From positions 1 through 30,023 of IMG/VR virus record IMGVR_UViG_2690316318_000018: a stretch of 30,023 nt of DNA; one strand, given 5' to 3'. Of this stretch, positions 1 to 30,023 are shown piece by piece. Both the position numbers and the translations under genes were made by a program. The stretch comes from a virus. Taxonomy: Duplodnaviria > Heunggongvirae > Uroviricota > Caudoviricetes. The notes beneath the pieces are model-generated. The model saw only the letters and a program-made list of their open reading frames with translations. It had not been told where the DNA came from and ran no database searches. How positions within the stretch are numbered: the first letter of the stretch is position 1; every line of letters begins with the position of its first letter.

Positions 1-603
1 ATGGATAACGCCATATTAAATAGCGAGATTATCGCCACCAAAGCAGGGAATATTACAGTGTATAACTATGATAGTGAAACCCGGGAATATATTTCCACTT
101 CAAATGAATATCTTGCTGTTGGCGTCGGTATCCCTGCATATTCCTGTTTAGATGCCCCTGGCACACATAAGGCGGGTTATGCTATCTGCCGTTCGATAGA
201 TTTAAACTCATGGGAATATGTGCCGGACCATCGCGGTGAAATTGTCTATAACACCGAAACGGGAGATGCCAAAGAAATCACAGCACCGGGCGACTATCCC
301 GAAAATACAACCACTATCGCCCCGTTAACGCCATACGATGAATGGGATGGTAAGAAATGGGTGACGGATACCGAGGCACAGCATAGCGCCGCAGTAGACG
401 CGGCAGAAGCACAGCGCCAGTCACTGATTGATGCAGCAATGGCTTCCATCAGTCTGATTCAACTGAAATTGCAGGCCGGACGTAAACTGACGCAGGCAGA
501 AACAACCAGACTTAACGCTGTGCTGGATTACATTGACGCGGTGACGGCAACAGATACCAGCACCGCGCCGGATGTCATCTGGCCTGAACTGCCGGAGGCG
601 TAG
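1..603 (+). CDS. Tail fibre assembly protein (Tfa/gpG family), copy G1', convergent with the gene at 575..1027
   Basis: 200-aa ORF. About 95% identical over its first ~153 residues to the minus-strand ORF at 2391..2924, then carries a full C-terminal segment (…DVIWPELPEA) of the kind shared by Tfa chaperones. Starts exactly at the window edge. Confidence 0.8.
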   Translation: MDNAILNSEIIATKAGNITVYNYDSETREYISTSNEYLAVGVGIPAYSCLDAPGTHKAGYAICRSIDLNSWEYVPDHRGEIVYNTETGDAKEITAPGDYPENTTTIAPLTPYDEWDGKKWVTDTEAQHSAAVDAAEAQRQSLIDAAMASISLIQLKLQAGRKLTQAETTRLNAVLDYIDAVTATDTSTAPDVIWPELPEA

Positions 604-1027
604 GCCATTCAATATCTGGTGCACCGGAAGTATCGATCAGCTCCAGTGCGTCCAGATAATCCAGCCACAAATTATATTGCGCCAGTTCATCACCTTTCAG
701 ACGACCAATAGCGGCTTTGCCGGGCCATTGCTTACTGTTCATGTATTCGTTGGCCTGGTTAATTAGTAGCTGTCTTTCTGATTCAGTAATTTCAATAAGT
801 TCTTCATGCGTGGGTGGAGGAATATCTGCCCACGCAGGCAGCCCATCACCTCCGGCAATACGGATTTTTCCTTGTGGCGGTTCAGCCATAAATTCACTGA
901 TAATATTTTGATTCACCTCTTTAGCATCTGATAAATCCCATCCCTCTGATTTATATTTATCAATCATATCCACAGGGAAAAAAGCATTATGCCTTGCGCT
1001 ATAAACATATTCGTTCATATAAATCAC
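575..1027 (-). CDS. Tail fibre assembly protein (Tfa family), alternative copy G2
   Basis: 150-aa ORF directly downstream of the alternative tail-fibre C-terminal domain. C-terminal segment (…LWLDYLDALELIDTSGAPDIEWPTPP) parallels that of the 1..603 product. Overlaps 1..603 tail-to-tail by 29 nt. Confidence 0.75.
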   Translation of the reverse strand: MIYMNEYVYSARHNAFFPVDMIDKYKSEGWDLSDAKEVNQNIISEFMAEPPQGKIRIAGGDGLPAWADIPPPTHEELIEITESERQLLINQANEYMNSKQWPGKAAIGRLKGDELAQYNLWLDYLDALELIDTSGAPDIEWPTPPAVQAR

Positions 1028-1038
1028 CCTTAATAAAA

Positions 1039-2427
1039 TTACTCACCAACAGCCCACCAACTGTAATTCATCGATACTGTGGAACTGGTTGATGCAGTTC
1101 TGTAAGCGGAATTAAAACCGGTTAATGTTGGACCTTCTGCGGTCATCACGAATCCCCGTCCAGCACCTAAAGGTGCACCACCATCACCAGAATGGGTAAG
1201 CATGGCGCAGTCCACTTTTTTAGGAAAAGGGATGCTGAATGTAATTCTCATTGTTTGCGTCGATAATGTCGGCGTAATCGCACCACGACCATATTGCAGG
1301 ATTTTCCCGTTGGGTAATTTCATCCATCCATCACCACTGGCAAAAGAAGCCATATCCGGTATCTGATTTTCCCCTGTTCCCACATCCCGTTTTGCCGCTT
1401 CTCCCAAACCAAGGTAATCAAGAACTCCCTGAGTGCTGGTTTTACCAAGAATGGCACGTCCAACACTTGTCAACGCGGTTAACGCGGCACGATCTGCCCC
1501 TGTAAAATATGGGAGTTTATCTGCTGATGTAGCAAGCTCCGCCAGCGCCGTCAGGGTGGCATCCTTCGGTTGCTTACCCGCAAGCGCGTTAGTCATGGTG
1601 GTCGCAAAATTCGGGTCATTGCCCAGCGCCGCAGCCAGTTCGTTCAGCGTGTTCAGTGCATCAGGTGACGAATCTACAAGTGCGGCAATCGCGGCCATAA
1701 CGAAAGCCGTGCTTGCGATCTGGGTACTATTAGTCCCCTGTGGCGCTGTTGGTGTTGTTGGCGTTCCGGTCAGTGCCGGGCTGTTTAATGGTGCTTTCTT
1801 GTTCGTTTCATCCATTACCGCCTTAACAGCTTTTGGTGTCGCTGCCAGCGTTTCAGACGTGCTGTTCGTGGCGCTACTGAGCTGAACAATCCCTTTTTGT
1901 GTAGTGGTGGCGTTCTGGGCGGTATATTTCCCGTTAGCCAGGTCATATGCAGCCTTAACCGCTTTCGGTGTTGCGGCCAGTGTTTCTGATTCACTGTTAA
2001 TTGCACTGCTTAACTGAGTAAAACCTTTTACGGTCAGCGAGGCGTCCGGGTGACGTCGTGATTGTTCGTGCTCTGATATTTTATCATCCACATATTTGCG
2101 GGTTGCCAGAACCACAGACGGGTCGATTTTCAGCGTGATGGCTTCGGTGTTCGTGACAACCAGAATCATGCGGATAGTCTGTGTGCGTCCACTGCCTTCC
2201 TGCAACTGCGGTTTGTACGTTTCCGGGCAGTTTGCCACCGCAATGAGTACACCTTCATCATCATAAAGACCAATCTCACGGATCCAGAATCCTCCCTCGT
2301 TTTCAGGGATGATTTGCTCCGCAATAATCTGGCTCTGATTGTTAGGGTCAACACTCAGAAGATTCAGCGGTGCAATGCGTTTCTGGTTAATCAGTTTTGT
2401 TTGTGCAGGGTCTGGTGTTGGTAACAC
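1039..2427 (-). CDS. Tail fibre protein, N-terminally truncated duplicate of H with an alternative C-terminal (receptor-binding) domain
   Basis: 462-aa ORF. Its first ~343 residues are identical to residues ~38-380 of the 541-aa H product. After the shared …VLDYLGLGE it continues with a different ~120-residue C-terminus. The track start is GTG at 2427, which is a Val codon in full-length H; independent translation is uncertain. Confidence 0.6.
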   Translation of the reverse strand: MLPTPDPAQTKLINQKRIAPLNLLSVDPNNQSQIIAEQIIPENEGGFWIREIGLYDDEGVLIAVANCPETYKPQLQEGSGRTQTIRMILVVTNTEAITLKIDPSVVLATRKYVDDKISEHEQSRRHPDASLTVKGFTQLSSAINSESETLAATPKAVKAAYDLANGKYTAQNATTTQKGIVQLSSATNSTSETLAATPKAVKAVMDETNKKAPLNSPALTGTPTTPTAPQGTNSTQIASTAFVMAAIAALVDSSPDALNTLNELAAALGNDPNFATTMTNALAGKQPKDATLTALAELATSADKLPYFTGADRAALTALTSVGRAILGKTSTQGVLDYLGLGEAAKRDVGTGENQIPDMASFASGDGWMKLPNGKILQYGRGAITPTLSTQTMRITFSIPFPKKVDCAMLTHSGDGGAPLGAGRGFVMTAEGPTLTGFNSAYRTASTSSTVSMNYSWWAVGE

Positions 2428-2433
2428 ACCATT
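1398..2433. repeat. Direct repeat copy A (1036 bp) of the tail-fibre H constant region
   Basis: Identical by eye to 3403..4438 at an offset of 2005 bp. The embedded antisense ORFs 1433..1885, 1815..2006 and 2166..2354 have translations identical to 3438..3890, 3820..4011 and 4171..4359. Boundaries read directly from mismatches at 1397/3402 and 2434/4439. Confidence 0.85.
1399..1424. other. Putative Hin/Gin/Cin-family serine-invertase crossover site (26 bp, imperfect dyad around a central AA)
   Basis: Plus-strand sequence TTCTCCCAAACC-AA-GGTAATCAAGAA. The half-sites are an imperfect inverted repeat and closely resemble hix/gix/cix sites as I recall them (e.g. hixL TTCTTGAAAACCAAGGTTTTTGATAA). 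It lies exactly at the constant/variable junction of the tail-fibre reading frame, where it encodes VLDYLGLGE. Confidence 0.6.
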
Positions 2434-2924
2434 ATCAACTTCCGTCCGGCCTGCAATTTCAGTTGAATCAGACTAATGGAAGCCATTGCAGTATCAATCA
2501 GTGACTGACGTTGTGCTTCTGCCGCGTCTACTGCGGCGCTATGCTGTGCCTCGGTATCCGTCACCCATTTCTCACCATCCCATTTATCGTATGGCGTTAA
2601 CGGGGCGATAGTGGTTGTTTTTTCGGGGTAATCACCCGGAGTTGTGATTTCTTTGGCGTCTCCCGTTTCGGTGTTATAGACGATTTCACCGCGATGGTCT
2701 GGCACATATTCCCATGAGTTTAAATCCATCGAACGGCAGATAGCATAACCCGCCTTATGTGTGCCAGGGGCATCTAAACAGGAATATGCAGGGATACCGA
2801 CGCCAACAGCAAGATATTCATTTGAAGTGGAAATATATTCTCGAGTTTCACCATCATAGTTATAGACGGTAATATTCCCTGCTTTGGTGGCGATAATCTC
2901 GCTATTTAATATGGCGTTATCCAT
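2391..2924 (-). CDS. G: Tail fibre assembly protein (Tfa/gpG family), copy G1, C-terminus replaced at a duplication junction
   Basis: 177-aa ORF immediately downstream of H. About 95% identical to the 1..603 product through …QLKLQAGRK, then reads 19 unrelated residues (LIMVCYQHQTLHKQN…) into the duplicated H segment; the nucleotide junction is at ~2434-2442. Confidence 0.7.
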   Translation of the reverse strand: MDNAILNSEIIATKAGNITVYNYDGETREYISTSNEYLAVGVGIPAYSCLDAPGTHKAGYAICRSMDLNSWEYVPDHRGEIVYNTETGDAKEITTPGDYPEKTTTIAPLTPYDKWDGEKWVTDTEAQHSAAVDAAEAQRQSLIDTAMASISLIQLKLQAGRKLIMVCYQHQTLHKQN

Positions 2925-4549
2925 TATGCAGCCCTCACAATATAGTTAAATGCAATATTCCTTGGTCGAACCCTAAAACCAGCCCCTGCGCCTGCTCCAG
3001 TTGGTGGCAATTCGATAGAGGGGTATGCTGTTGCAGGGGAATATAAACCTTCACGGGAATCATAATCAGTCGTCATATAGTTAGACGTATTATCAGAAAC
3101 AGTTTCTGTCGGTCTGGTAACCAGACGATAAGAGCCAGTGGTTGGTGACCTGACCAGACCAAAACTTTCAACCAGAGTAGCTTTTTGAAAGCTTAATAAT
3201 CCCCGACCACTGTCAGCTCCGCGCCCATCATCCCAGCCACGAATAAACTCACCGCGTAAATCAGGCAGTTTATTTGTCGGATAAGCCTTTGCCAGTTTAG
3301 GATATTCAACGGCAGAAAATGCCGCACCGTTGCATTTCAGCCAGCCTGTTGGCGGAGTGGCGGAAGGCCACGGAACAGGCACACCCGCGGGTAATGCCGA
3401 ACCTTCTCCCAAACCAAGGTAATCAAGAACTCCCTGAGTGCTGGTTTTACCAAGAATGGCACGTCCAACACTTGTCAACGCGGTTAACGCGGCACGATCT
3501 GCCCCTGTAAAATATGGGAGTTTATCTGCTGATGTAGCAAGCTCCGCCAGCGCCGTCAGGGTGGCATCCTTCGGTTGCTTACCCGCAAGCGCGTTAGTCA
3601 TGGTGGTCGCAAAATTCGGGTCATTGCCCAGCGCCGCAGCCAGTTCGTTCAGCGTGTTCAGTGCATCAGGTGACGAATCTACAAGTGCGGCAATCGCGGC
3701 CATAACGAAAGCCGTGCTTGCGATCTGGGTACTATTAGTCCCCTGTGGCGCTGTTGGTGTTGTTGGCGTTCCGGTCAGTGCCGGGCTGTTTAATGGTGCT
3801 TTCTTGTTCGTTTCATCCATTACCGCCTTAACAGCTTTTGGTGTCGCTGCCAGCGTTTCAGACGTGCTGTTCGTGGCGCTACTGAGCTGAACAATCCCTT
3901 TTTGTGTAGTGGTGGCGTTCTGGGCGGTATATTTCCCGTTAGCCAGGTCATATGCAGCCTTAACCGCTTTCGGTGTTGCGGCCAGTGTTTCTGATTCACT
4001 GTTAATTGCACTGCTTAACTGAGTAAAACCTTTTACGGTCAGCGAGGCGTCCGGGTGACGTCGTGATTGTTCGTGCTCTGATATTTTATCATCCACATAT
4101 TTGCGGGTTGCCAGAACCACAGACGGGTCGATTTTCAGCGTGATGGCTTCGGTGTTCGTGACAACCAGAATCATGCGGATAGTCTGTGTGCGTCCACTGC
4201 CTTCCTGCAACTGCGGTTTGTACGTTTCCGGGCAGTTTGCCACCGCAATGAGTACACCTTCATCATCATAAAGACCAATCTCACGGATCCAGAATCCTCC
4301 CTCGTTTTCAGGGATGATTTGCTCCGCAATAATCTGGCTCTGATTGTTAGGGTCAACACTCAGAAGATTCAGCGGTGCAATGCGTTTCTGGTTAATCAGT
4401 TTTGTTTGTGCAGGGTCTGGTGTTGGTAACACACCATTTGCATCACCAACGGCCATTTGCGTCAGATTCAGCTTACTGCCGAGCATCGTCGCGTTAGCCA
4501 GTCGTGCTGCGCCCTGATTAGTCAGAATGGCGTAGTATTTCACTGTCAT
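2924..4549 (-). CDS. H: Tail fibre protein H (full length, C-terminal variant 1)
   Basis: 541-aa ORF at the P2 gene H position, downstream of I. Thr/Ala/Ser-rich central region with repeated …TQLSSA.NSESETLAATPKAVKA… motifs typical of myovirus tail fibres. Confidence 0.85.
   Translation of the reverse strand: MTVKYYAILTNQGAARLANATMLGSKLNLTQMAVGDANGVLPTPDPAQTKLINQKRIAPLNLLSVDPNNQSQIIAEQIIPENEGGFWIREIGLYDDEGVLIAVANCPETYKPQLQEGSGRTQTIRMILVVTNTEAITLKIDPSVVLATRKYVDDKISEHEQSRRHPDASLTVKGFTQLSSAINSESETLAATPKAVKAAYDLANGKYTAQNATTTQKGIVQLSSATNSTSETLAATPKAVKAVMDETNKKAPLNSPALTGTPTTPTAPQGTNSTQIASTAFVMAAIAALVDSSPDALNTLNELAAALGNDPNFATTMTNALAGKQPKDATLTALAELATSADKLPYFTGADRAALTALTSVGRAILGKTSTQGVLDYLGLGEGSALPAGVPVPWPSATPPTGWLKCNGAAFSAVEYPKLAKAYPTNKLPDLRGEFIRGWDDGRGADSGRGLLSFQKATLVESFGLVRSPTTGSYRLVTRPTETVSDNTSNYMTTDYDSREGLYSPATAYPSIELPPTGAGAGAGFRVRPRNIAFNYIVRAA
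3403..4438. repeat. Direct repeat copy B (1036 bp) of the tail-fibre H constant region
   Basis: See copy A; same orientation, offset 2005 bp. Confidence 0.85.
3404..3429. other. Putative Hin/Gin/Cin-family crossover site, second identical copy in direct orientation
   Basis: Same 26-bp sequence as 1399..1424, at the constant/variable junction of full-length H. Confidence 0.6.
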
Positions 4550-16544: not shown

Positions 16545-18749
16545 TTACGTGTCGAGAGAAATTTGTGTGCGCAGTTGAATAGGATTCAGAATTGTATATC
16601 GCTGGCGAATAACATTATATAAATCAAAGTCTTTTACCCTTACGCTTATTACCATCGCATATTGCATATCAGGGGCTGAAACTCCCTTAACATGGCGCGA
16701 AGAATCTCGGGCATGATACCGTATATCAAAAACTGGATCGCTTAATAATGTATCAGCACTGAACTTTTTGCTTCTGTGCAAACAAGTTTCCCACTTATGA
16801 CCTTCACTCCTACACTCCCTTTCAGTCTTATACTGGCTTTTTTGACCAAAGAAATCATCTGTATCGGTATCGTCAAGGCCGAATCTTGGGCGGAAAGTTA
16901 CCTGCATACCGGCCCTTGTATAGTTTACTGAATGTTCAGGATCTACTGGGGTTTGAATGCATAAAGTAGCGGTAAGCTCAAATGCTTCGTCAAAGGGAAC
17001 ATCAGGGAATGGGATCGGTGCCCTTAAATATTTATTTTTTGCTAATGAACCATAGTAAATTACTGTAGCAGTATCATTTGGACAATCGATTAAAACGTTA
17101 GGATCCTCACTAAACCGTCCCCAACCGATATGTTCACGCGAATATTTTCTTGATGTTTCAGCATGATGAACAAGCAACGCTTTCAATGCAATGGTGTTCA
17201 ATGGAGTTCCTGATAGAGCCGCAACTCCAGCGGCCGTTCTCAATGCTAATGGAGAGGCATAACTGGTTCCTTGAACTCCAACTATAGAACCAAGCAGAGG
17301 GTTGTAAGTGTAAAAAGGCTCGTCGTCGCTTCCACCAAAAATAACACCATCAGGTTTAACGAATCCGGGGCTTCTGCCTGGCCCAATACAGCTATATGGT
17401 GCCCGCCCCCATTTTTCACCGCTACGATCAGCAGCACCAATCGCTAGCGCGTTTACCATATCGGAAGGAGGTTGTATTCTCGCTGCATCACCGTCCTCAT
17501 TGCCATCATTCCCAACAGCAACAGTAAGTAATATCCCATGCTTAGCACAGATTTGGTCTAAAACAGCAGTCCATACATGAACCTCATCATCACCAATTGG
17601 AAGATGAGGACCAATACTTAGATTAGCGAACTTATAGTCACCACTATCAAGAACGGACTGTATTTTCTTAAGGACATCAAATAAATCCCAATTGCCATTG
17701 TCACCTGATGTCGGTGAAAGAACTCTATAATGATCTACATTCATAAACGGTCTTTTAAAAGAAGGTGCATTTTCCTCGACACGTCCGAATAAGAAAGTGG
17801 ATGTCACTTCATTACCGTGCTGCAATAATAATCCGCTTGTTTCTTTGGTGTCTGGATACACGTATTCCGTAACCCAATTACTCAAGTCAGCTGTCCCCAA
17901 GCCACCATCAAAAATGGCAATACGTTCGGATTCAAGAACAGCTTTAGAATTAGGGAGCTCCGGTGTAACTATATTAGATAACTTTCTGACAATGTTCGGC
18001 TGAGTACACCTGAGAGACGGCATCGGCCGCACAACGCGGATTAATGAAAAATCGAGTGTTTTTTTCATATCTTCAGGTCGCGCGTGTGCAACGATGAAAG
18101 TCAGCCCACCAACTTGGATTCTACTTTTGTAATCAACAGAGACATCATATTGTGCCGCATAGCTAATATAGGCTTTAACGATATCATCGTCTTCAACCCC
18201 AGCATGAAGAACCACTTCAAATTTTATCAAATCACTTTTCGCATGCTCAAAATTGCGTGCTCTCTCTTTTCCTTCAAAAAAGCTAACACTTTCAATTTCG
18301 ATCAAATCCTTTTGTACGCCCTTCGGAGCTGTAGGGGAATTTAAAATTTCCTTAAATCTTATAACGGCATCATCATCACCGCTAACAAACAGTTGCGCCG
18401 TTACTAAGTCCTTATTCTGATCGCACTGACGTGCCGCTTTCCGTGGGCGAATGATTACCTGACGGCTGCCGACATCCCGTAAACCTGTCGCTCTAAGCAA
18501 TCCTTCCGGAAAGTAGCTTTTACCCAAAAACGCTGGGTGTAAAGTTAAATTGAATACACTCTCCCCCCTTGGCTTAGCCGCATCATCCAAACTGCGAAAG
18601 CGTGAGAGTAAAGTATCAATCTCTGGGTTTAAATGCTCCCTTACTTCTTCAAGAGTATAGGGATAGCGCTTACCATCCCTTCCTTTAGGCAAAGGTTCCT
18701 TTTTTGTCAGAACATGACCGTTACCTAAAAGTAAGTTCCTTTCCATCAT
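16545..18749 (-). CDS. Subtilisin-like serine protease (peptidase S8 family) with ~270-aa N-terminal and ~230-aa C-terminal domains of unknown function
   Basis: 734-aa ORF. S8 catalytic motifs in canonical D-H-N-S order: …RIAIFDGGLG… (Asp ~281), …LLQHGNEVTS… (His ~311), …VAVGNDGNE… (oxyanion Asn ~414), …GVQGTSYASP… (Ser ~496). Start overlaps the upstream ATPase stop (ATGA). AT-rich codon usage. Confidence 0.85.
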   Translation of the reverse strand: MMERNLLLGNGHVLTKKEPLPKGRDGKRYPYTLEEVREHLNPEIDTLLSRFRSLDDAAKPRGESVFNLTLHPAFLGKSYFPEGLLRATGLRDVGSRQVIIRPRKAARQCDQNKDLVTAQLFVSGDDDAVIRFKEILNSPTAPKGVQKDLIEIESVSFFEGKERARNFEHAKSDLIKFEVVLHAGVEDDDIVKAYISYAAQYDVSVDYKSRIQVGGLTFIVAHARPEDMKKTLDFSLIRVVRPMPSLRCTQPNIVRKLSNIVTPELPNSKAVLESERIAIFDGGLGTADLSNWVTEYVYPDTKETSGLLLQHGNEVTSTFLFGRVEENAPSFKRPFMNVDHYRVLSPTSGDNGNWDLFDVLKKIQSVLDSGDYKFANLSIGPHLPIGDDEVHVWTAVLDQICAKHGILLTVAVGNDGNEDGDAARIQPPSDMVNALAIGAADRSGEKWGRAPYSCIGPGRSPGFVKPDGVIFGGSDDEPFYTYNPLLGSIVGVQGTSYASPLALRTAAGVAALSGTPLNTIALKALLVHHAETSRKYSREHIGWGRFSEDPNVLIDCPNDTATVIYYGSLAKNKYLRAPIPFPDVPFDEAFELTATLCIQTPVDPEHSVNYTRAGMQVTFRPRFGLDDTDTDDFFGQKSQYKTERECRSEGHKWETCLHRSKKFSADTLLSDPVFDIRYHARDSSRHVKGVSAPDMQYAMVISVRVKDFDLYNVIRQRYTILNPIQLRTQISLDT

Positions 18750-19828
18750 TTAATCCCCCACTTTTGTAATTTATTCGCGATTGTTGGATGTGAAACACCA
18801 ACTAATTCAGCTATCTTCCTATTTGAAAAACCGTCAAAATGATATTTAATTATATTGAGATCATTATCGCTAAACTCATCCAATGAAACCCTCTCCGTAA
18901 TTACGGCTTCTATTAATGAGCTTTCAAATGGAATATTTCTAAGTACCTCATTCTTTTTGGAGAAATTCAAAATACGGTTAATGATGGCAAAGGACATGCC
19001 ATCTAATAATGGTGCAAGTTTTTTAGATAGTTCAGGTTCAATATTATGATTGACTAAATATCTATCTATCAGTTCTACTGATGGCATATTAAATTTAAGG
19101 ATGTGCTCAAATCGACGCCAAACAGCCGGATCTAAGATATCAGGGTGATTAGTCGCAGCAACAAGAAGCGAGGTCGCTGGCCACTCATCTATGGTCTGTA
19201 GGAGTACAGTAACTAAACGTTTTAATTCTCCAACGTCCCTGTCATCATCACGTCTTTTTGCAACAGCATCAAATTCATCAAGCAAAAGGACACATGGTTT
19301 CTCTTTGGCATAATCCATAACGGATTTAATATTATTACCTGTTTTTCCCAAAAGAGAACTCATTACAGATGAGAGATCCAATGTTAAAAGAGGTAAATTT
19401 AACTTTGCAGCAAGCCAATGTGCGGACATTGTTTTGCCTACGCCTGGCGGGCCAGAAAGTAAAACCGTCTTCACAGGTTCAAGACCAGCTTTGAACAAAG
19501 AAACCGCATTCTCTCTTTCGTTAACAATTGACTCCAGCTTCTTTGAGATATCCGTATTCCATACAGGTTCTTCAACAATTGCGTTGACAGATGTTTCCTG
19601 CAAAAGGTTTCGTCTGGAGTCTCCATCCACAGGCATAGGAGCCTTACTAGATGCCCCACGTAATACTGTTCCCTCAGCAACTAACGAAGCCAGCTTAGAA
19701 GCTAAAGCCTCATCATTTTTACGGATGTTGTTAATCATCTTTCTGCATAGGAGTGTAAATGCATTTGCGTTGCCTTTGATGCCTTGCTCGATGAGTTTGA
19801 AAAGTTCATCCTCCCTCACGTTTACCAT
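18746..19828 (-). CDS. Classic-clade AAA ATPase with predicted C-terminal helix-turn-helix
   Basis: 360-aa ORF. Walker A LSGPPGVGKT (~126-133), Walker B VLLLDEFD (~180-187), second region of homology …LLVAATNHPDILDPAVWRRFEH… (sensor-1 Asn, Arg fingers). C-terminal segment …SNRKIAELVGVSHPTIANKLQKWG… resembles a LuxR / sigma-70 region-4 type HTH. Confidence 0.85.
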   Translation of the reverse strand: MVNVREDELFKLIEQGIKGNANAFTLLCRKMINNIRKNDEALASKLASLVAEGTVLRGASSKAPMPVDGDSRRNLLQETSVNAIVEEPVWNTDISKKLESIVNERENAVSLFKAGLEPVKTVLLSGPPGVGKTMSAHWLAAKLNLPLLTLDLSSVMSSLLGKTGNNIKSVMDYAKEKPCVLLLDEFDAVAKRRDDDRDVGELKRLVTVLLQTIDEWPATSLLVAATNHPDILDPAVWRRFEHILKFNMPSVELIDRYLVNHNIEPELSKKLAPLLDGMSFAIINRILNFSKKNEVLRNIPFESSLIEAVITERVSLDEFSDNDLNIIKYHFDGFSNRKIAELVGVSHPTIANKLQKWGIK

Positions 19829-20164: not shown

Positions 20165-20206
20165 TTTATGTTATGGGATTGGTGGCAGGGCGAATACGCC
20201 CTGATG

Positions 20207-20518
20207 TTATTCAGGAAATAACGCCCGGATATTTCCGGCCATCTGACTGGTTATCTGTGCGGTTGATACTGGCTGTGACGCGGGGCGTTCTGTCTTGGTT
20301 TGTGTCACTGATAACACCTCATCATCAGCCCATGCAGCCAGTCGGTAAGCCTCTGCCGGATTCATTTTCAGAAGTGCCAGCCCGGCCAGAAAAGCCACGC
20401 GTTGGCCGCTTTTGCGGGCTTCTGGTGTAAGGCTGTCCAGCCAGGCGCATGCTTCTCCTTCGTTCTTGACGGCGGTGGGCTTCAGATAGAAACTTATCCG
20501 TCTGGTTGGAGTCGTCAT
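20207..20518 (-). CDS. parR: ParR-like centromere-binding partition protein
   Basis: The track ORF is N-terminally overextended; starting at the internal Met (MTTPTRRISFYLKP…) gives 103 aa. Pattern …ISFYLKP…LDSLTPEARKSGQRVAFLAGLAL…IRALFPE resembles plasmid R1 ParR as I recall it. Starts 5 nt after the parM stop. Confidence 0.7.
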   Translation of the reverse strand: MTTPTRRISFYLKPTAVKNEGEACAWLDSLTPEARKSGQRVAFLAGLALLKMNPAEAYRLAAWADDEVLSVTQTKTERPASQPVSTAQITSQMAGNIRALFPE

Positions 20519-20522
20519 TGGT

Positions 20523-21482
20523 TTACTCCTTGTCCATTGCGTACAGCCCATTAACCAGAGCAAACTGTGGCACCCCGTCCGCGATGAAAGTCGCATTAAC
20601 TCCGCAGGCTTCGCGGATAGCGGGTGCCACAATCTCCGCCCCTCCACCGACAACCATCACCCGCCCGTAACCCGAAAAAACCGCCAGCGCGCGGATCACG
20701 CGTTGTTTCAGTGTTTCCTCCTTTTCACGAATAACCGCCATCAGGCTGTCGTAATGCGCGTCATTGTGGATGTGCTGGCGCAGCCAGGCTTCATCATAGC
20801 GATGTTCGATAATGGTATTGGCGATGTGGTGACTGGTGCGCATACCGTTAGTGGCCATCACCGACAGCACGGCATCGGCCATCAGAGAAACGCCTACGTG
20901 TGGATCGCAAAACACCTGGCTGATACCTGCCAGTTGCCCCTGAACCTTTGCCACATCCAGCGTGGTTCCGCCCAAATCCACAATCAGCAGGGATTCAAAC
21001 GGACTCATGTCAGCCAGTGCTTTAAAGCCAGCCGGAATGGATTCAGGCATAACCCGCACGTTACGGATAGTGAATGCTTCGCCGTTCTGGTACTCCACCG
21101 GGCGCATAACGTTCGCTTTTTTGCGGTTGATGTTGGCCATGTCCGGCTGTGCGTTTGTGTCGAAATACTCGCTCAGTGGCAGGGTGACAACCACATCCAC
21201 CTCCTGTGGTGTGATGCCTGATTTGACCAGCGCGTGATGAATGGCAATGACATTCACATCGCTGTATTGGTATTGCGTGTCGGTCGTCTGGACAAAGCGA
21301 TCGCTGACCGGATCAAAACCATAGCGCACGCCATCAAGCATGTAGTTCGCGGGCTGCGTGCCACCGAACGGCGCAGACCATTCCGACTTGAAGCTGTTCG
21401 GGCTGATGGCGTTGCGGCGTTCGCCGTTCTCAGTCCATGCCAGCTTGATGTTGGTGGAGCCGTCGTCGATACAAATTTTCAT
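20523..21482 (-). CDS. parM: ParM/StbA-like actin-family partition ATPase
   Basis: 319-aa ORF. N-terminus MKICIDDGSTNIKLAW…ISPNSFK…YQYSDVNVIAIHHAL…VMPESIPAG…LIVDLGGTTLD… closely parallels plasmid R1 ParM (…FIDDGSTNIKLQW…ISPNSFK…WQYSDVNVVAVHHAL…VMPESIPAG…) as recalled from memory. Confidence 0.85.
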   Translation of the reverse strand: MKICIDDGSTNIKLAWTENGERRNAISPNSFKSEWSAPFGGTQPANYMLDGVRYGFDPVSDRFVQTTDTQYQYSDVNVIAIHHALVKSGITPQEVDVVVTLPLSEYFDTNAQPDMANINRKKANVMRPVEYQNGEAFTIRNVRVMPESIPAGFKALADMSPFESLLIVDLGGTTLDVAKVQGQLAGISQVFCDPHVGVSLMADAVLSVMATNGMRTSHHIANTIIEHRYDEAWLRQHIHNDAHYDSLMAVIREKEETLKQRVIRALAVFSGYGRVMVVGGGAEIVAPAIREACGVNATFIADGVPQFALVNGLYAMDKE

Positions 21483-28984: not shown

Positions 28985-29485
28985 ATGGAAATAAAAAAAC
29001 CTACAAAAAAAGAGTTATATGACTATTTACTATCGAAATATATAGAAGATAAATGCAAAGAAGAAGCTGATGAAATCAATAAGAAGTCGATGAGTCGTGT
29101 CAATAAACATAAGGAGCGGCTGATGGAGATTACGCCAGAAATCTTCTTCCGTTTCTTGTCTGAGAAGGAGGTTTCCAGTGTCTGCCCTTCATGTGGATCG
29201 TCTCGATTATCTGTGCCTGAAAGTATGGATCTTTGCTGGGATAAAAATAAGAAACCAGAAAATTTTAACAATCTACCCTTGGAGGAGCAGAGTGAGTTAA
29301 TTAAAGAGAACATAAAGCATTATGTATCTTATACTTTTTTGGGTGATGTTAAGAGCATACCTGATATGCGCAAAACTTATTACACGCTGCATTGCCTGAA
29401 TTGTGGTTACCTGAGCCTTTACCGTACGTCTGCGGTGCTGAAGTGGTTGGAGAAAGACAAAGCACAGGATGGTGAAAATGGGTAA
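28985..29485 (+). CDS. Hypothetical Lys-rich protein with two Cys pairs (possible zinc ribbon), AT-rich cargo
   Basis: 166-aa ORF starting 3 nt after the int stop; CPSCGS … CLNCGY; strongly AT-rich codon usage unlike the phage backbone. Confidence 0.55.
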   Translation: MEIKKPTKKELYDYLLSKYIEDKCKEEADEINKKSMSRVNKHKERLMEITPEIFFRFLSEKEVSSVCPSCGSSRLSVPESMDLCWDKNKKPENFNNLPLEEQSELIKENIKHYVSYTFLGDVKSIPDMRKTYYTLHCLNCGYLSLYRTSAVLKWLEKDKAQDGENG

Positions 29486-30023
29486 TGTAGCAAGAAACCT
29501 GTTCGGTAATTCAGCAGGTAGTATGTCGCATTCTGAGCGTGATGTGCTTTATCATGGCGGCGATGGCGGCAGTAGTGGAGGTGGAATGTCAGATAAACTT
29601 GAAAGGCGAATTGAGCGACTCGAAAGTGATTTATCGCTAACAAGAAACGACCTTGCGACGCTTGCTGAACGCACTACAAACCTCTCAACCAAAGCCGATG
29701 TTGGTGAGGTGAAGGGTGAGCTCAAAGCAGACATTGCTCATCTGAAAGGTGAGCTTGAATGCGATATTGCGAATCTGAAAGGTGAGCTTAAATCTGATAC
29801 AGCTAATCTGAAAGAGCAGCTCAAATCAGACATTAACAGCCTGAAGGGTGAGCTTACCGAAGCGATGGATAAACGCTTTGACAAGATTATGGATGAGATG
29901 AATCGGCGGTTTGACAAGGTTGATGATAATACGAAGTGGCGTTGGAGTGGCATTATTGTGCCAGTGTGCACAACCATTTTCACGGCGGCGGTCGCGTATT
30001 TTGTTGCTAAATTTGTTGGCTGA
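29469..30023 (+). CDS. Hypothetical tail-anchored coiled-coil membrane protein with five tandem 11-residue repeats
   Basis: 184-aa ORF overlapping the upstream ORF by 17 nt. Gly/Ser-rich linker, then repeats …VGEVKGELKAD / IAHLKGELECD / IANLKGELKSD / TANLKEQLKSD / INSLKGELTEA…, then a single C-terminal TM helix (WSGIIVPVCTTIFTAAVAYFVAKFV). Ends at the window edge. Confidence 0.55.
   Translation: MVKMGNVARNLFGNSAGSMSHSERDVLYHGGDGGSSGGGMSDKLERRIERLESDLSLTRNDLATLAERTTNLSTKADVGEVKGELKADIAHLKGELECDIANLKGELKSDTANLKEQLKSDINSLKGELTEAMDKRFDKIMDEMNRRFDKVDDNTKWRWSGIIVPVCTTIFTAAVAYFVAKFVG

Follow-up and report, generated by a model that had tools for sequence, protein, structure and literature searches.

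Two copies of a 26-bp element are written in direct orientation in the sequence of a P2-like prophage of E. coli, and the question raised by this locus is whether they are two recombination sites or a single one. The window, that is, the whole stretch of DNA that was analysed, is 30,023 nucleotides long, and its source contig has a public record (GCA_001286085.1, CYCK01000006.1). A first reading of the window, made from the sequence alone, reported the element twice, and exact matches to TTCTCCCAAACCAAGGTAATCAAGAA are indeed found at 1399-1424 and 3404-3429, where 0 matches are expected by chance; allowing up to 3 mismatches reveals no further copy in the window. The same reading placed each copy at the junction where a shared coding sequence, ...GVLDYLGLGE, yields to a differing C-terminus, and this too is what we observe.

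The site and the repeat that contains it

The two 26-mers are not independent: they form the left edge of a perfect direct repeat of 1,036 bp, with 100% identity between positions 1398-2433 and 3403-4438, which duplicates Sc, the constant part of a P2 gpH-like tail-fibre gene. The features of the locus are the following.

3430..4549, minus strand: Sc, constant part of the P2 gpH-like tail-fibre gene (Pfam PF12571, PF03406)
3404..3429, no strand: Pin/Gin-type invertase crossover site at the Sc/Sv3 junction, the "flipped" state; exact 26-mer
2924..3403, minus strand: variable cassette Sv3 (also called Sv1), Collar domain (Pfam Collar, PF07484)
2435..2924, minus strand: U1, tail-fibre assembly gene, first 490 nt (Pfam Caudo_TAP), cut off by the scaffold gap
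2434..2434, no strand: scaffold gap, "N" in the public contig and "A" in the window, at the right-hand edge of the 1,036-bp repeat
1425..2433, minus strand: second written Sc copy, from codon 40, 100% identical to 3430-4438
1399..1424, no strand: the same site, second written copy, at the repeated Sc/Sv2 junction, the "unflipped" state; inside the 1,036-bp repeat
1039..1398, minus strand: variable cassette Sv2, gp53-like C-terminal domain (Pfam PF21882)
575..1027, minus strand: U2, tail-fibre assembly gene, partner of Sv2 (Pfam Caudo_TAP, E 1e-30)
1..603, plus strand: U3, tail-fibre assembly gene in inverted orientation (Pfam Caudo_TAP)

The first Sc, at 3430..4549, has an N-terminal tail-collar fibre domain and fibre repeats; the related prophage L004, with its single Sc, matches it at 100% identity over 1,146 nt. 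Cassette Sv3 is joined to it in frame, yielding a fibre of 541 aa; this cassette is 100% identical to the silent inverted cassette Sv' that precedes an identical U3 gene in relatives L004, L005 and L009, and its last 55 bp recur inverted at the end of the contig, just upstream of window position 1. The second Sc copy has no start codon of its own: the GTG start of its 462-aa open reading frame is codon V40, and the 39 missing N-terminal residues, added to this frame, give with 100% identity the 501-aa fibre of relatives L004 and L001.

Each variable cassette comes with its own chaperone, Sc+Sv2 (501 aa) with U2, and Sc+Sv3 (541 aa) with U3. Cassette Sv2 is 100% identical in L001, L004, L005 and L006, and the gene order at U2 is unchanged across all relatives. 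U3 is the partner of the silent Sv3' cassette, located past the end of both window and contig; in the relatives, Sv', the inverted site and the invertase gene all come before U3. The truncated gene U1 is a different allele from U3, 95% identical to window positions 1-490 as an inverted repeat, and is 100% identical, right up to the N, to the tfaE gene of another type of P2-like prophage (L010).

The site itself has the architecture TTCTCCCAAACC-AA-GGTAATCAAGAA, with half-sites that agree as a dyad at 7 of 12 positions. The inner half-site and core (TTCTCCCAAACC-AA) are found exactly, 14 bases out of 14, in both sites of the e14 P segment, TTCTCCCAAACCAAGGTTTTCGAGAG and TTCTCCCAAACCAACGTTTATGAAAA.

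The same locus in related prophages

The identical site occupies the Sc/Sv junction of relatives L001, L002 and L004. Relatives whose cassettes are identical to those of the window have two crossover sites, the inverted partner being TTCTCCCAAACCAACGTTTAAGAAAA, beside an invertase gene; the window itself has direct copies alone, which we read as one site written twice. The invertase gene is present in every relative examined, just upstream of the position equivalent to the window. It encodes a protein of 199 aa with Resolvase (PF00239) and HTH_7 (PF02796) domains, whose best solved relative is Mu Gin (PDB 4m6f, E 4e-92; 3uj3, E 2e-91), and which has 76% identity to Gin and 83% to PinE. The sequence-only reading was correct in stating that the window contains no invertase gene. 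It proposed to look for one upstream, together with an inverted site: the source contig stops after 55 bp, within the inverted copy of Sv3 (= Sv1), and it is in the relatives that both are seen at this place. A protein search with the invertase of a relative, followed to its two best clusters, led to assemblies other than the source. We infer that the invertase of the source strain lies on another contig.

The relatives also reveal the two positions of the switch. Cassette Sv2 adjoins the Sc-side half-site in L001, L002 and L004, and the invertase-side half-site in L005 and L006, which are flipped: both inversion states are thus found among different assemblies, with the exchange falling within the site. 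The source contig holds both junctions, Sc-Sv2 and Sc-Sv3. Relatives L004 and L001 have one Sc each, 99.9-100% identical to that of the window, and the tandem layout is found in 0 of 5,426 complete E. coli genomes, in which the best places cover 81% of the query and have one Sc.

Given the half-site identical to that of e14, the inverted partner and invertase of the relatives, and the observation of both states, the proposal of a Gin/Cin/Pin/Hin-family site where the constant part of a tail-fibre gene meets the variable part is borne out, and the suggestion that it might be a relic or a coincidental match is wrong. The 26-bp element is a genuine DNA-inversion site, of an already well-known type, and the gene in which it lies encodes the tail fibre of a P2-like E. 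coli prophage.

The probable scaffold join at position 2434

We now turn to the duplication. Position 2434 is the sole difference between the window and the public record over 12,549 compared bases, and the A given in the window fits neither natural continuation, which, on the plus strand, is T for Sc and G for the tfaE allele. The sequence to the left of the N matches the contig's own Sc at 100%; that to the right is 100% identical to the natural tfaE allele, which in L010 runs on normally. Because the far end of the repeat is an N, both the identity between the copies and the "direct orientation" that they show rest on an unsequenced join.

The best explanation, to which we assign a probability of roughly 0.83, is that the locus is one canonical Pin/Gin-type switch whose two inversion states were concatenated by the scaffolder, the direct-repeat layout being an artefact: Sc and the site would appear twice in direct orientation because the alternatives were written consecutively, joined by a single N. 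The two tail-fibre reading frames described in the sequence-only reading do have differing C-termini, but they would be two states of one gene rather than two genes. The direct orientation that it considered unusual, and favourable to deletion, would likewise be made by the single-N join, in keeping with its absence from the complete genomes.

The real layout, on the minus strand, would then be Sc - site - [Sv2 U2 / U3' Sv3'] - inverted site - invertase. A Gin-like serine invertase would exchange strands at the central AA of two inverted 26-bp sites, and the inversion would put behind Sc either Sv2 (501-aa fibre with a gp53-like tip, and U2) or Sv3 (541-aa fibre with a Collar tip, and U3), an exchange of cassettes predicted to switch the receptor specificity. 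With both Sc-Sv2 and Sc-Sv3 in the sequenced DNA, the culture was most likely mixed for orientation; a second prophage copy is a less likely source of the other junction. The short-read assembler and scaffolder would have written both alternatives in series, with a single N between them (2434), and the contig would break 55 bp into the inverted Sv3' copy. The assembly path through Sv3 would have strayed into the paralogous tfa allele U1 by way of a stretch of about 310 bp shared with the other prophage type; Sv1 and the L010-type cassette do have a perfect common stretch of about that length. How the assembly software made the join is a probable course of events, read from the N and its context. 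Gap-filling software extends the edges of scaffolds into gaps and leaves repeated areas open (PMC3446322).

A simpler version, in which one flipped segment is merely written twice, had to be modified: U1 and U3 are 5% apart, so that the extra block is more than a reverse-orientation reading of one segment, a paralogous tfa allele is involved, and the strain must be supposed to have a second tfa-bearing element. The Sc of the L010-type prophage was also considered as the cause of the start at codon 40, and is ruled out, being just 66-75% identical.

The 30-nt junction has no match in a contig collection that holds one genome per species, a result that says little, the pattern having contained the substituted base; an exact look-up of the 177-aa chimeric reading frame found no record, a likely reason being the N codon in the public version of this frame; and a literature search for accession CYCK01 returned nothing. 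Four samples are listed with the source contig, which, if they were independent isolates, would argue for a reproducible structure.

It is conceivable, but rather improbable, that the two sites are both real and non-adjacent: two P2-like prophages, or a prophage and a remnant, with identical Sc and in different places of the chromosome, would be fixed in different states, one being Sc-Sv3-U1 and the other Sc-Sv2-U2-U3'-Sv3', and would have been strung together by the scaffolder. No flipping in culture would then be required. U1 as a distinct allele, 5% from U3, implies at least two tfa genes of this type in the strain, and the number of homologous tail-fibre places per E. coli genome has a median of 2 and reaches 16. 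However, the exact combination of Sv1 and U1 is absent at more than 98% identity from the complete E. coli genomes (best match 98%), and the perfect stretch of about 310 bp between Sv1 and the L010-type cassette suffices to mislead a short-read assembler. Moreover, 100% identical copies of Sc should collapse or break the flanking I/J genes, and these read through cleanly.

That a single assembly holds both junctions suggests active flipping of the switch in the strain that was sequenced, provided that neither junction came from a second prophage copy. It also calls for caution: segments that flip within a culture lead to draft assemblies with both states in one scaffold, and such scaffolds display apparent gene duplications, truncated or chimeric reading frames (here those of 177 aa and 462 aa) and recombination sites that look "direct". 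In the window, the replacement of the N by a base hides the one clue that betrays the join.

Comparison with known inversion systems

The biology is already known: textbook knowledge includes the Pin/Gin-type tail-fibre switches of e14, Mu, P1 and P2-like E. coli prophages. The P segment of e14 in E. coli K-12, with its invertase Pin, has the same four-gene invertible module (stfP-tfaP / tfaE-stfE / pinE), in which Sv-tfa faces tfa'-Sv' and the invertase gene lies outside. Its invertase-side site is 1 nt away from that of the relatives of the window. However, e14 is lambdoid and defective, and its fibre gene has decayed, whereas the prophage of the window is P2-like and apparently intact; the half-site of the window on the Sc side, GGTAATCAAGAA, is also unlike e14. 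In the G segment of Mu, with Gin, and also in the C segment of P1, with Cin, Sc/Sv fusion is likewise obtained by inversion, with an adjacent invertase. Mu has, as here, an imperfect dyad of 26 bp around a 2-bp core, located at the annotated boundaries of G, but the gix site there, TTATCCAAAACCTCGGTTTACAGGAA, has core TC, matches that of the window at 18 of 26 positions and differs at 8, and the backbone is that of Mu instead of P2.

The P2-like prophage of EPEC strain E2348/69 (Goldberg et al. 2014, PMC4272514) is of the same lineage, with 97.5% identity across 86% of the remainder of the window. Its Sc is 99.4% identical, it has the outer half-site GGTAATCAAGAA in common with the window, and its gene order is the same, the invertase followed by U-T-E-FII-FI. 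In clonal E. coli cultures, the tail-fibre segments of e14 and of P2-like prophages were found by experiment to flip constantly, and for this sister prophage the flipping was seen by sequencing and PCR (PMC4272514). The E2348/69 locus differs by its different cassettes and its three sites, two direct and one inverted; the locus that truly underlies the window is apparently of the simple two-site form, like L004 and L001. Shufflon-like loci, of the p15B Min or E2348/69 type, have at least three sites in a contiguous locus, and in the window the second direct site comes via the N join alone. A real three-site example, L034, differs in look from the layout of the window.

Such loci bear on a further reading, which we hold to be even less probable than that of two separate prophages, namely that the tandem structure is physically real. 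A recent illegitimate recombination would have joined nucleotide 490 of a tfa gene to a second copy of H at its codon 40, yielding a three-site system with two direct sites, each behind its own Sc copy, and an inverted site upstream; three cassettes could then be presented through successive inversions. Serine invertases normally make no deletions between direct sites, owing to the topological selectivity of Gin and Hin, and the tandem structure would therefore be stable. If real, a 5'-truncated Sc copy with its own site behind a truncated chaperone gene would be an architecture that is not known to have been described for invertase-controlled tail fibres. The layout does stand in a deposited contig, and in the sister prophage of E2348/69 three sites, two of them direct, occur naturally and behave as a shufflon (PMC4272514). 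Yet the sole base at the proposed junction is an N, the junction is missing from all 5,426 complete genomes, and the E2348/69 locus has its three sites with no duplication of Sc. The "third" cassette, Sv1, is 100% identical to Sv3', and hence adds no specificity, and the second Sc lacks both a start codon and the N-terminal baseplate-binding residues. A tandem duplication with a unit of 2,005 bp is rejected because just 1,036 of the 2,005 bp are repeated and the junction base is an N.

A last observation concerns the invertase gene of the P2-like prophages. Compared with Mu gin, its synonymous-site identity is 0.65-0.77 over the first 60 codons or so, 0.33-0.54 across the central part, and 0.10-0.21 over the final third, a gradient consistent with a putative conserved cis element in the 5' part of the gene, where inversion systems of this family have a Fis-dependent recombinational enhancer.

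A Gin-type crossover site

The tail-fibre region reads as follows, where Sc is the constant part of tail-fibre gene H, Sv a variable cassette, and tfa a tail-fibre assembly (chaperone) gene.

Features of the tail-fibre region
4549-2924, minus: gene H, 541 aa, composed of Sc, the crossover site, then a Collar-domain variable part
2924-2435, minus: tfa gene that makes no sense past nt 490
2433-1425, minus: second Sc copy, from codon 40 onward
1424-1399, minus: crossover site, second occurrence
1398-1039, minus: Sv2, a differing variable part with a gp53-like C-terminal domain
1027-575, minus: U2, the chaperone of Sv2
1-603, plus: U3, an inverted tfa gene

A search of the window finds TTCTCCCAAACCAAGGTAATCAAGAA at 1399-1424 and 3404-3429, where none is expected by chance, and no further copy in the window with up to 3 mismatches allowed. 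Both copies are on the coding (minus) strand of the tail-fibre ORFs, at the point where the common ...GVLDYLGLGE gives way to differing C-termini. The sequence-only reading had called them recombination sites of the Gin/Cin/Pin/Hin type, and both the call and the family assignment hold. The same 26-mer occupies the Sc/Sv2 junction in three relatives (L001, L002 and L004), with an inverted partner, TTCTCCCAAACCAACGTTTAAGAAAA, between the silent inverted cassette Sv' and a recombinase gene. In two others, L005 and L006, Sv2 is attached to the recombinase-side half-site instead: both orientations thus exist, and the exchange takes place within the site. The same reading proposed to look upstream for an invertase and an inverted site; every relative examined has both, directly upstream of the position equivalent to the window start.

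The relatives encode a 199-aa recombinase that combines a Resolvase with an HTH_7 domain. Its identity is 76% with Gin and 83% with PinE, and its best solved relatives are the Mu Gin structures 4m6f (E 4e-92) and 3uj3 (E 2e-91). For comparison, in the e14 P segment of E. coli K-12 the site at the stfP junction reads TTCTCCCAAACCAAGGTTTTCGAGAG and the one beside pinE TTCTCCCAAACCAACGTTTATGAAAA; in Mu, the two annotated G boundaries both carry TTATCCAAAACCTCGGTTTACAGGAA. To judge from these comparisons, the crossover site is genuine. The real feature, a tail-fibre inversion site, is already known.

Invertases of this family have a Fis-dependent enhancer located inside the gene. When the P2-like invertase genes (L005 1934-2533) are compared with Mu gin and e14 pinE (L012 5593-6174 and L013 4686-5240), the conserved residues agree at the third codon position clearly more often in the first ~60 codons than in the remainder of the gene. 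This higher 5' synonymous conservation would fit such an enhancer, but is not proof of it.

A probable scaffold join at position 2434

The two copies of TTCTCCCAAACCAAGGTAATCAAGAA are not independent of each other: each stands at the start of a direct repeat of 1,036 bp, 1398-2433 being 100% identical to 3403-4438. An inverted repeat of 490 bp, at 95% identity, relates 1-490 to 2435-2924.

Exact-protein look-ups place the window in contig CYCK01000006.1 (203,629 bp) of GCA_001286085.1, starting at contig position 56. The contig terminates 55 bp upstream of the window; reverse-complemented, this short piece reproduces exactly window 2925-2979, where the first variable cassette has its 3' end. 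Window and public record were compared over 12,549 bases and disagree at a single position, 2434, which is N in the record and A in the window. This is the exact right-hand edge of the 1,036-bp repeat, and the A fits neither natural continuation: T in Sc, G in the tfa allele (this strand). One flank of the N is 100% Sc; the other is 100% identical, over 490/490 nt, to tfaE of L010, a P2-like prophage of another type in strain CI5, which runs on normally past the point where the window's tfa breaks off. Since each flank matches a natural context perfectly up to the N, position 2434 must be a scaffold join, and not a sequenced recombination junction. The direct orientation of the two sites, flagged as unusual by the sequence-only reading, is not real: the edge of the repeat is this join.

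Probably two states of one invertible segment

A single Sc copy is found in the five relatives whose Sv2, U2 and U3 are 100% identical to those of the window (L004, L005, L006, L008, L009), and likewise in L001, for Sv2; Sc of L004 is 100% identical over 1,146 nt. Placing the N-terminal 39 residues of the 541-aa protein ahead of the 462-aa ORF gives the 501-aa H of L004 and L001, at 100%. Sv3 (2924..3403), which supplies the variable end of the 541-aa protein, matches at 100% the silent inverted Sv' located ahead of U3 in L004, L005 and L009. Given these two matches to single-Sc relatives, the Sc-Sv2 and Sc-Sv3 that stand in tandem in the window are very probably the two states of one invertible segment.

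The best explanation as a whole, to which we give a probability of about 0.83, is one two-site Pin/Gin-type switch. An invertase encoded just past the contig end would pair the Sc-side site with the inverted site adjoining its own gene, and strand exchange at the central AA would flip the segment Sv2 U2 U3' Sv3' (the primes mark inverted orientation), so that fibre tip and chaperone alternate. Scaffolding would have produced the direct-repeat layout and two shortened ORFs, a truncated chaperone of 177 aa and a fibre of 462 aa that lacks its N-terminus. Gap-filling software lengthens scaffold edges into gaps via k-mer overlap, and repeated areas stay open (PMC3446322). Gap filling would yield exactly a second Sc copy with a residual N; we infer that such software lies behind this assembly.

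The tfa fragment after Sv3 (U1) is a 5%-divergent allele that differs from U3, and Sv3 has a perfect stretch of ~310 bp in common with the L010-type cassette, which begins in the 3' part of Sv and reaches to tfa nt 57. The combination of Sv3 and U1, at >98% identity, is absent from complete genomes. Most simply, the assembly would have strayed here into a paralogous tfa gene that belongs to a different prophage of this strain. That the scaffolder strung together two prophages with identical Sc is unlikely. A real tandem duplication, giving a three-site system, is more unlikely still: the tandem layout was sought in 5,426 complete E. coli genomes and no place has it, the best ones covering 81% of the query with one Sc.

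As for the two-site switch, the e14 segment is found in both orientations, about 1:1, in clonal K-12 cultures (sequencing and PCR), the tail-fibre loci of two P2-like prophages of EPEC E2348/69 flip, and one of these has three inverted repeats that yield four variants (Goldberg et al. 2014, PMC4272514). Given this published flipping, both junctions are expected in a culture of the source strain. One E2348/69 P2-like prophage, L034, belongs to the window's lineage and has the outer half-site GGTAATCAAGAA in common with it; it has three sites without Sc duplication.

Crossover sites of L034 (NC_011601.1 1888500-1903500)
3198, 3637, 5184: two direct, one inverted

Their spacings, about 2.0 and 1.5 kb, are probably those of the three-IR "shufflon" of Goldberg et al. 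2014. The second direct site is immediately 3' of the H stop codon and heads a promoterless cassette.

In other drafts, contigs break at or within ~100 bp of crossover sites or Sv'/tfa repeat edges: L008 (1,555-bp contig), L009 (1,096-bp contig), the start of L005 and the end of L004. This suggests that flipping of the segment regularly fragments or confuses short-read assemblies.

Tail operon orientation and other genes

In the window's lineage, the invertase gene is directly followed by the tail operon FI-FII-E-T-U, which is oriented opposite to the baseplate/fibre operon, and gene D is divergently transcribed.

Opposite tail operon, upstream of the window-equivalent start
L001 1-5434
L005 1934-9057
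L034 5264-12733

Unlike in this lineage, the operon is co-linear in the L010-type P2-like prophage; it is also co-linear in P2 itself. The opposite orientation amounts to a fixed inversion of about 6 kb, which an invertase acting at a secondary site may have caused.

The remainder of the window is a P2-like prophage, with baseplate, lysis, head and terminase genes, replication gene A and integrase.

Additional genes
16545-19828, minus: IetS-like and IetA-like cargo pair, between the portal gene and the ParM/StbA-like gene
about 20200-20520, minus: Plasmid_stab_B-like small protein, near replication gene A
20523-21482, minus: ParM/StbA-like actin-type ATPase, 319 aa, adjoining replication gene A of the integrated prophage
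28985-30023, plus: two ORFs past the integrase gene, the window ending exactly at the stop codon of the second

Past the integrase, the 166-aa ORF, with CxxC pairs, is without any family match; the 184-aa ORF, a coiled-coil with a hydrophobic C-terminal segment, has weak matches only, to the LmuB and ZorA models within their coiled-coil stretches (E about 1e-5 to 3e-4), which are probably compositional. The two partition-type genes are kept in many relatives, according to Pfam listings. In the cargo pair, the 734-aa S8 peptidase matches the IetS anti-phage defence model (E 7e-41) and the 360-aa AAA ATPase that of IetA (E 4e-89): this defence system is a known one, located in a variable hotspot of the P2 type, and ~2,700 indexed blocks of the assembly collection contain the identical IetS-like protein.
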